Positions 35,455-35,817 of a stretch of 64,000 nt of DNA are shown piece by piece. Numbering within the stretch: position 1 is the first letter of the stretch; each line of letters starts with the position of its first letter. Under the pieces are notes generated by a model. That model saw only the letters and a list, made by a program, of their open reading frames with translations. It searched no databases and was not told where the DNA came from. Position numbers and translations under genes: made by a program. Source of the DNA: Escherichia phage vB_Eco-B1.1; sequence record ON871820; one strand, 5' to 3'.

Positions 35455-35817
35455 ATGAAAGCATATCAAATTCTTGAAGGCACACATAAAGGTACTATTT
35501 ATTTTGAAGATGGTATTCAAGCACGAATTATCGTTTCTAAAACCTTTAAAGAGGACTCTTTTGTAGACCCAGAAATTTTCTATGGTTTGCATGCCCGTGA
35601 AATTGAAATTGAGCAACAGCCTACAGTTAAAATTGAAGGTGGTCAACACCTGAACGTTAACGTTCTGCGTCGTGAAACTCTGGAAGATGCAGTTAAGCAT
35701 CCGGAAAAATATCCGCAGCTGACCATCCGTGTATCCGGTTATGCAGTTCGCTTTAACTCTCTGACTCCGGAACAGCAGCGCGACGTTATCGCTCGTACCT
35801 TTACCGAGAGTTTGTAA
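35455..35817 (+). CDS. grcA: autonomous glycyl radical cofactor (GrcA/YfiD-like)
   Basis: C-terminal 60 aa [59 protein letters not shown] matches E. coli GrcA / the PFL glycyl-radical domain from memory; N-terminal half diverged. Confidence 0.85.

Follow-up and report, generated by a model that had tools for sequence, protein, structure and literature searches.

Gene vs.6 of Escherichia phage vB_Eco-B1.1 (sequence record ON871820) lies at positions 35455-35817 of the 64,000-nucleotide (nt) stretch of DNA analyzed here, hereafter the window. Judged from its sequence, vs.6 is an old phage copy of the bacterial gene grcA, with a diverged, AT-rich 5′ half and a young patch derived from the host, Escherichia coli. 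The reading that we favor, with a probability of about 80%, is that this old copy, which would provide a spare part for host pyruvate formate-lyase (PFL), has been patched by recurrent host-to-phage gene conversion within the limits set by homology. The gene and its parts are as follows.

35455..35817, plus strand: the vs.6 (Y06I) open reading frame (ORF), 120 amino acids (aa), a phage GrcA-type autonomous glycyl-radical cofactor (from the ORF list, phage nucleotide identities, Pfam, PDB, NCBIfam and PHROG).
35455..35632, plus strand: the phage-type 5′ half, an AT-rich, diverged homologue of the GrcA N-terminus, attributed to vertical inheritance among T-even phages (from GC content, profile comparison and phage identities).
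35633..35804, plus strand: the host-derived tract of 172 nt, which encodes the glycyl-radical domain and is identical to E. coli grcA nt 200-371 (from codon alignment and position lists).
35805..35817, plus strand: the gene tail, comprising the last four sense codons and the stop, with four synonymous differences from host grcA (nt 351, 354, 357 and 358).

Over nt 179-350 of the gene (window 35633-35804), vs.6 was identical to nt 200-371 of E. coli grcA at 172 of 172 positions. A blastn search with vs.6 nt 179-363 gave a 97.8% match in all 5,426 complete E. coli genomes. A 168-nt core of the tract was at least 99% identical in 5,156 of the 5,432 matching E. coli records, and 100% identical in roughly half of an evenly spaced E. 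coli sample. The grcA genes of Citrobacter and Trabulsiella, which encode the same 56 aa, matched the tract at 155 of 168 nt (~92%), and the remaining enterobacterial genera in the panel ranged from ~85% up to 90% (152/168). The first-pass annotation of this DNA, made from the letters alone, had proposed that the segment be aligned to host grcA and pflB. E. coli pflB matched the tract region at 140/180 nt, and the identity of the tract to grcA exceeds the level set by protein conservation. Because no genus with the same amino acids exceeds 92%, compared with 172/172 for the phage, the tract appears to be of E. coli-specific origin. When the whole window was compared with the 5,426 E. coli chromosomes by megablast, the tract was the sole chromosomal match.

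The composition of the tract was also determined. Its GC content was 0.503, compared with 0.345 in the vs.6 5′ half (0.33-0.345) and 0.353 ± 0.043 in the other ORFs of the window. The background consisted of 677 windows of 57 codons taken from these other ORFs, and only 0.15% of them had a GC content as high as that of the tract. The GC content at third codon positions (GC3) was 0.44 in the tract, 0.19 in the 5′ half and 0.23 in the other ORFs. Within the 3′ half of vs.6, CTG accounted for 5 of 6 Leu codons (6% in the window ORFs), CCG for 3 of 3 Pro codons (13%) and CAG for 3 of 4 Gln codons (29%), and Arg was encoded exclusively by CGT or CGC. CTG, CCG, CAG and CGT/CGC dominate the tract, yet they are minority codons in the window ORFs. 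These results confirm the earlier claim of host-preferred codons and higher GC in the 3′ part. Identity at the level of protein conservation with uniform codon usage, which the same annotation had named as evidence to the contrary, is clearly not what was found.

The 5′ border of the tract was abrupt, with GTT AAA ATT in the phage and GTT CGC GTT in the host right before the common GAA GGT GGT. On the 3′ side of the stop codon, the phage sequence (TAATGACAAAG) and the host sequence (TAAGGCTTAAG) were unrelated, and host similarity stopped exactly there. The gene had been described earlier as a mosaic with a "host-like 3′ half". It is a mosaic, but the host part is an internal patch, since the last four sense codons differ synonymously from those of the host.

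No nucleotide match to the 5′ half of vs.6 was found in the E. coli genomes by blastn. At the protein level, the N-terminal halves were compared as profiles with hhalign, one profile being built from ten diverse phage homologues and the other from ten bacterial GrcA proteins. This comparison gave a probability of 97.8%, an expect value (E) of 9e-13 and 28% identity over 60 columns. The N-terminal halves are thus homologous, indicating that the whole of vs.6 descends from a grcA gene. The 5′ half of the window gene was 89% identical to that of RB69-type phages and 74-76% identical to that of the Klebsiella Jiaodavirus phages.

The ORF at 35455-35817 is T4 gene vs.6, the product of which is named Y06I in the biochemical literature. 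It was 100% identical at the nucleotide level to Escherichia phage EC128, 98.3% to T4 and 93.1% to RB69 vs.6. The Pfam domain Gly_radical was detected at aa 60-101 (E 2.5e-18), and an RVSGY motif was present at aa 92-96.

35737..35739, plus strand: the codon for Gly95 in RVSGY, the predicted radical-bearing glycine, equivalent to PflB Gly734 (translation aligned to the PflB C-terminus and GrcA; role of the glycine from PMC8683613).

All residues of Vs.6 aa 61-120 were identical to E. coli GrcA aa 68-127, in agreement with the first-pass assignment of the C-terminal 60 codons to the GrcA/PFL glycyl-radical domain. The best solved relative was E. coli GrcA (PDB 6owr, E 9e-42, spanning aa 22-120), followed by pyruvate formate-lyase, and PflB aa 659-760 showed 57% identity over 106 aa (E 3e-32). 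The top NCBIfam model was TIGR04365 spare_glycyl with 154.9 bits, and the N-terminal 19 aa fell outside the alignment. Vs.6 is a divergent phage subfamily of GrcA/YfiD and corresponds to PHROG 1209. That family is still listed as function unknown although its T4 member has been biochemically characterized.

From the uniformity of the host gene, the direction of transfer is host to phage. The two parts of E. coli grcA that correspond to the 5′ half and the tract had GC contents of 0.47 and 0.49 and GC3 of 0.42 and 0.41. Their identities were 0.844 and 0.831 to Salmonella grcA, and 0.854 and 0.849 to Enterobacter grcA. Since E. coli grcA is uniform in both GC and divergence, the tract appears to be native to the host. 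Moreover, grcA adjoins eamB, its usual chromosomal place, in the five E. coli strains fetched, and ung lies on its other side in the single strain fetched with wider flanks. If instead E. coli had acquired the 3′ half of its grcA from a T-even phage, there would be a precedent in cyanophage psbA, for which exchange has been reported in both directions (PMC1484495). However, the two halves of the host gene are equal in GC, GC3 and divergence, the gene sits in its usual place, and the tract is compositionally foreign in the phage and not in the host. Phage-to-host transfer, which we consider very improbable, was rejected on the basis of the uniform host gene and the foreign composition in the phage.

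The age of the tract was estimated from a comparison of T4-type and RB69-type phages. Identity between the two types was about 70% in the 500 nt on either side of vs.6 and 88.9% in the 5′ half of the gene (20 differences in 180 nt). In the host tract it was 98.8-100% (0-2 differences in 168 nt), and in the last 15 nt of the gene it was 80%. The contrast between the 5′ half and the tract (Fisher test, P 9e-5 to 1e-6) indicates that the tract is far younger than the split of the phage genera. The identity step between the two phage types falls precisely at the border of homology with the host. Recent recombination with the host gene, as suggested in the first-pass annotation, is therefore supported by a tract that is E. 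coli-specific at synonymous sites, native to the host and younger than the phage lineage split. As these sequence patterns are read here, recombination with the host chromosome was recent and probably repeated.

We searched 50,697 phage records with E. coli grcA and found 645 phages with a tract of at least 90% identity (634 + 4 of them at least 95%). Of 40 alignments sampled, 39 extend to the junction, and in each of these the E. coli-type tract begins at grcA nt 199-202. Among the Tequatroviruses, isolates from Yersinia, Serratia or Salmonella also had the E. coli tract. A tract 100% identical to the species used for propagation could point to an assembly artefact, in which host reads were built into the phage genome. 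However, the same in-frame mosaic with the same junction occurs in at least 645 independently sequenced phages, including the T4 reference AF158101. In addition, the tail and flanks are phage-specific, and Klebsiella phages bear a Klebsiella tract. An artefact has next to no probability in our judgment, and it was rejected because the mosaic recurs across hundreds of phage genomes.

The Klebsiella Jiaodavirus set consisted of KP185, PKO111, Nispero and an IMG/VR contig (L116). Their vs.6 genes have the same phage-type 5′ half (GC 0.34-0.36) and the same 5′ junction, but the GC content of the tract is 0.55. This tract matches the grcA genes of four gut-metagenome contigs (L172-L175), and the protein encoded by L172-L173 is exactly the GrcA of K. 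pneumoniae (GRCA_KLEP7). The L116 tract showed one difference from L172 between GAAGGCGGTCAG and GTTATCGC, and the Nispero tract matched the Klebsiella allele L175 at 156/158 positions. In 134 Klebsiella phage records, the tract was 90-97.6% identical to L172. At the protein level, the residues in the Klebsiella phages are those of Klebsiella (ETLLDAVEHPEKY), and the two aa differences from the E. coli version follow the host. Nineteen tract positions, 16 of them synonymous, separate E. coli from Klebsiella grcA and were used as diagnostic sites, with the following results.

This window: E. coli base at 19/19 sites, Klebsiella base at 0.
T4: E. coli base at 19/19 sites, Klebsiella base at 0.
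RB69: E. coli base at 18/19 sites, Klebsiella base at 1.
L116: E. coli base at 0 sites, Klebsiella base at 19/19.
KP185: E. coli base at 1 site, Klebsiella base at 18/19.
PKO111: E. coli base at 1 site, Klebsiella base at 15/19.

For both E. coli-type and Klebsiella-type tracts to exist, this segment must have passed from host to phage at least twice independently. Together, these data suggest that at least two independent host-matched events took place, with signs of more.

We also considered that no recombination was involved and that selection on synonymous sites, acting through codon adaptation for high expression or an RNA-level constraint common to phage and host, preserved the identity of an old host-derived segment. 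The protein domain is extremely conserved and the codons of the tract are typical of highly expressed E. coli genes, which would fit such selection. Nevertheless, the bacterial genera, on which the protein constraint is equal, differ from one another at 8-15% of the tract positions. At the 19 diagnostic sites, including the 16 synonymous ones, the bases in the phages go with those of their own host, and T5-like E. coli phages keep the domain at only 74% nucleotide identity to the host gene. Such selection is a highly unlikely explanation. Synonymous selection or convergent codon adaptation is effectively refuted by the host-specific synonymous differences.

Several results bear on whether host-to-phage conversion was repeated within the E. 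coli type. Four of the seven synonymous phage variants inside the tract (192G, 195T, 219C and 282A) are also polymorphisms of E. coli grcA (hypergeometric P 3.5e-4; 2e-3 counting transitions only). The E. coli allele 282A was present in about 485 genomes. In addition, the 3′ limit of host identity varied among phages. It reached the stop codon except for nt 354 in phage OES_C-2, nt 356 in T4 and nt 350 in this window. Shared polymorphisms and variable 3′ ends suggest several events from different donors.

Alternatively, one recent capture per host type could have been followed by spread through phage-phage recombination among co-infecting T-even phages, with no continuing exchange with the host. 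T-even phages, as is generally known, recombine readily among themselves. The 89% identity of the 5′ half between T4-type and RB69-type phages, compared with about 70% in the flanks, makes a phage-phage exchange of vs.6 possible. Moreover, the 5′ junction was identical in every phage examined and in all lineages, to which a single origin with spread among phages would fit too. On the other hand, the jump from 89% to 99-100% identity lies exactly at the border of host homology and not at arbitrary phage-phage crossover points. The tract variants coincide with segregating E. coli alleles, and the 3′ end points vary between phages. The two host-specific tract types would require at least two independent events anyway. 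We regard a single capture per host type as unlikely, and recurrent host-to-phage conversion as the preferred reading.

Besides the shared 5′ junction, other points weigh against recurrent conversion of a spare-part gene. The set in which allele sharing was tested was small, with 10 T-even sequences (9 distinct) and ~15 grcA alleles of the E. coli type, and parallel mutation at hot third positions could add to the sharing. The complete haplotypes of two variant phage tracts (L093 and L094) had no match in the sampled E. coli (best 98.8% and 99.4%). The Klebsiella-phage tracts were 91-99% identical, that is, below 100%, to the Klebsiella alleles at hand. When Salmonella grcA was compared with all phage records, no phage tract above 90% and no third host-matched group was found. 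The homologues of Karamvirus-like phages, Slopekvirus, Krischvirus and Pseudotevenvirus reached only 80-86% identity to the nearest bacterial gene. The lack of a Salmonella type and the 80-86% genera indicate that conversion is not universal. The Vs.6 protein also scored under the TIGR04365 equivalog cutoff for GrcA (154.9 vs 170 bits), which is due to its divergent N-terminus. Finally, the spare-part function is known in vitro, for the T4 protein alone, and the recombination steps are inferred from sequence patterns.

The homologue of Aeromonas phage Ah1 showed about 70% nucleotide identity to the nearest bacterial gene. The copies in the 80-86% genera, in T5-like phages and in Ah1 may have had no recent recombination with the host. 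In Citrobacter phage Moon (L258, 40001-90000), no RVSGY or GGQHLN motif and no vs.6 homologue was found, including in the syntenic regB-ipIII region, so that vs.6 is not universal in Tevenvirinae.

Some individual sequences deserve mention. The vs.6 gene of OES_C-2 (L252, 329-685) has lost 6 nt in frame from its 5′ half (EIEIEQQP to EIETQP). Its host-identical stretch is the longest that was seen, with only one position differing over nt 179-363. In L116 (167,034 bp), the vs.6 5′ half at ~1500-1862 is out of frame, leaving an 80-aa open frame to the normal stop. The Klebsiella-type tract is intact despite this frame break, which reflects either a pseudogene or a sequencing error. A jumbo-phage contig from IMG/VR (L117, 345,809 bp) encodes a small vs.6-like protein in a 132-aa open frame with a GC content of about 0.31 and no host-like tract, matching the nearest bacterial gene at 134/180 positions. 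Two further contigs (L115 and L118, about 355 kb) also match the query, and their genes were not recovered cleanly. In a metagenome contig of 1,683 bp (L204, OHAV01008836.1), nt 230-268 of an E. coli-type grcA matched pflB at 39/39 positions and grcA at 21/39. This segment yields MNREMLLDAMEN and represents either bacterial grcA-pflB paralogue conversion or a chimeric assembly of the short contig.

For recurrent conversion, we propose the following mechanism. The glycyl-radical domain is heavily constrained, and the phage and host copies would thereby remain similar enough for recombination. In an infected cell, a fragment of host grcA would be copied into vs.6 by homologous recombination (gene conversion), as in T4 marker rescue, with fragments of the host chromosome recombining with the replicating phage DNA as donor. 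T4 degrades the host nucleoid, has very active recombination and rescues markers from cloned homologies of ~50 bp upward. Since ~50 bp upward suffices, a grcA donor of 172-185 bp is within the marker-rescue range of T4. The reach of the patch would be set by similarity, with the 5′ limit at GAA GGT GGT, where the diverged half begins, and the 3′ limit at or just before the stop codon. The last codons would escape conversion, drift and retain the ribosome-binding site of the downstream gene vs.5. Positions near the end of homology would rarely enter the patch, and the tail would for that reason gather lineage-specific synonymous changes. We further propose that each patch, by making the identity perfect, renders later conversions easier. 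The phage tract would thereby follow the grcA allele of the current host species.

The tail of vs.6 overlaps the start of vs.5, and both features are given below.

35806-35810, plus strand: GAGAG, a Shine-Dalgarno-like motif for the overlapping vs.5 start (from sequence).
35817..36038, plus strand: vs.5, 73 aa, the downstream gene, not host-derived, PHROG 1986 (from the ORF list and the T4 and RB69 annotation).

The vs.5 ATG overlaps the vs.6 stop (TAATG). The change 354 A>G converts the host GAAAG into GAGAG, 7 nt upstream of this ATG. It was found in every sampled phage but T4 and is the single host difference over nt 179-363 in OES_C-2. In the record of Klebsiella phage KLB25, a ribosome-binding site is annotated where the GAGAG of the vs.6 tail sits. 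The tail position 354G may thus be selected as part of the vs.5 ribosome-binding site.

As to the function of Vs.6, the E. coli YfiD and T4 Y06I proteins were studied by Knappe's group. As cited in PMC8683613, the PFL activating enzyme installs a glycyl radical on both proteins, and both reactivate oxygen-cleaved PFL in vitro (Wagner et al., 2001, pmid 11444864). A single residue (Q54P) separates T4 Y06I from the protein encoded in the window. The small size, RVSGY, the PflB-like domain and the full-length homology to GrcA are consistent with a spare-part role for this allele too. Repair of oxygen-damaged host PFL, one of the two functions put forward in the first-pass annotation, thus has in vitro support from a protein one residue away. 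In such a role, the host PFL activase would radicalize Gly95 of Vs.6, and Vs.6 would replace the C-terminal glycyl-radical domain cut off by oxygen at PFL Gly734. The restored PFL would sustain fermentative production of acetyl-CoA, ATP and formate. By analogy, Vs.6 may compensate for the phage shut-off of host gene expression; since T4 shuts off host expression, damaged enzyme would be repairable only with a phage-encoded part.

The other function put forward was service to the glycyl-radical enzyme NrdD of the phage, in which Vs.6 would be a replacement glycyl-radical domain for NrdD, activated by phage NrdG, and not for host PFL. NrdD (split, 53685-54230 + 55216-56547) and NrdG (56544-57014) are indeed present in the window, as had been stated. 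In Aeromonas phage Ah1 (L090, 197-580), nrdG and nrdC/nrdH directly flank the vs.6 homologue, an arrangement that differs from that of T4-type coliphages and is the only hint from gene context, and a role in nucleotide metabolism was suggested by Nolan et al. (2006, PMC1524935). However, no similarity of Vs.6 to the product of the NrdD exon 2 in the window was detectable (BLASTP E 1.7). The Vs.6 domain is of the GrcA/PflB type, with 60 aa identical to GrcA and 57% identity to PflB, and T4 Y06I has been shown to work with PFL and PFL activase (PMC8683613). Service to NrdD is improbable, and the idea was rejected on the basis of the missing NrdD similarity and the GrcA/PflB-type domain. The ORF that splits nrdD (54471-55241) combines GIY-YIG and NUMOD1 domains, the composition expected of a homing endonuclease encoded within an intron. 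In an Rfam search of 53500-56000, no group I intron reached the gathering threshold. Endonuclease VII (gp49) is encoded at 53215-53688.

We compared vs.6 with related systems. In T4, Vs.6/Y06I is the same gene in the same place, between vs.7 and vs.5 and upstream of regB, and T4 vs.6 itself is host-identical over nt 179-356. Relative to T4, the window allele has two extra synonymous tail differences from the host (nt 351 and 354). The gene was conserved in all six T4-like genomes compared by Nolan et al. (2006, PMC1524935), with a Gly_radical domain. E. coli GrcA/YfiD shares with Vs.6 the last 60 aa, 172 identical nt, a homologous N-terminus and the function reported for the T4 homologue. It differs in that Vs.6 has an N-terminal half that is only ~28% identical and 7 aa shorter, and is encoded by an AT-rich gene in a phage operon. 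T5-like phages of the same hosts also encode small GrcA homologues (T5_ev212 'gcrA') with the same glycyl-radical domain, but without a host-identical tract (about 74% to any enterobacterial grcA). The GC contents of the 3′ tract and 5′ half are 0.44 and 0.39 in the T5-like gene, compared with 0.49 and 0.33 in the window gene. The T5-like gene may represent the state of a phage copy without recent host recombination.

The psbA/psbD genes of cyanophages offer the closest parallel in evolution. Intragenic host-phage recombination in these genes was reportedly also described by Zeidner and colleagues in 2005. Patchy GC and intragenic host-phage recombination have been found there in T4-like phages (Sullivan et al., 2006, PMC1484495). 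As with vs.6, the gene that a T4-like phage has in common with its host encodes a protein part that is easily damaged and needs continual replacement, and it shows patchy GC and host-exchanged segments. Unlike psbA, vs.6 belongs to phages of an enterobacterial host, has one sharply bounded tract that is 100% identical to the current host species, has the same junction for two different host genera and shows a clear host-to-phage direction, whereas the cyanophage psbA signals are more diffuse and reported both ways (PMC1484495). Neither the nucleotide-level mosaic of vs.6 nor its host-specific versions were found described in the literature searched, which did not include the main T4 genome review, and an earlier mention is possible. 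The gene and its in vitro function are already known, and the evolutionary pattern is an unusually clean case of a host-patched phage auxiliary gene.

The gene order 3′ of vs.6 (vs.5, vs.4, vs.3, regB, vs.1) matches T4 and RB69 and is that of the T4-type early region. A scan for promoters and terminators around vs.6 gave a site count no higher than in shuffled sequence. The labels of vs.6 across phage records are inconsistent and include hypothetical protein, pyruvate formate-lyase, glycine radical, ribonucleotide reductase subunit and acetyltransferase. Elsewhere in the window, 11 tRNA genes were found at 26687-27701 (Gln, Leu, Gly, Pro, Ser, Thr, Met(CAT), Tyr, Asn, His and Arg). The segment 27232-27417 (tRNA-Met/Tyr/Asn) matched at 82-86% about 240 non-mobilizable plasmids, mostly of E. 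coli, at places where no gene is listed. Nine sampled plasmids of this group were 93-127 kb in size. These plasmids may be phage-plasmids with related tRNA genes.

In most descriptions, T4 has essentially no DNA in common with E. coli. The pattern in vs.6 is surprising for T4 and easily tested, and it overturns nothing. It is conceivable, although on present evidence doubtful, that the vs.6 tract is overwritten repeatedly by the grcA allele of the latest host. The tract would then be a record of the recent host, with the exact identity of the domain, down to the two residues that separate E. coli from Klebsiella, kept to fit host PFL and its activase, in a concerted evolution of virus and host genes. 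If conversion is ongoing, vs.6 would offer a clean and experimentally tractable example of how a virulent phage recombines with the chromosome of its host, with a short tract, a sequenceable or selectable marker and the genetics of T4. It would also extend the spare-part logic and the psbA type of mosaic evolution to enteric phages and to an anaerobic enzyme, and the tract could mark the natural host of T-even phages.

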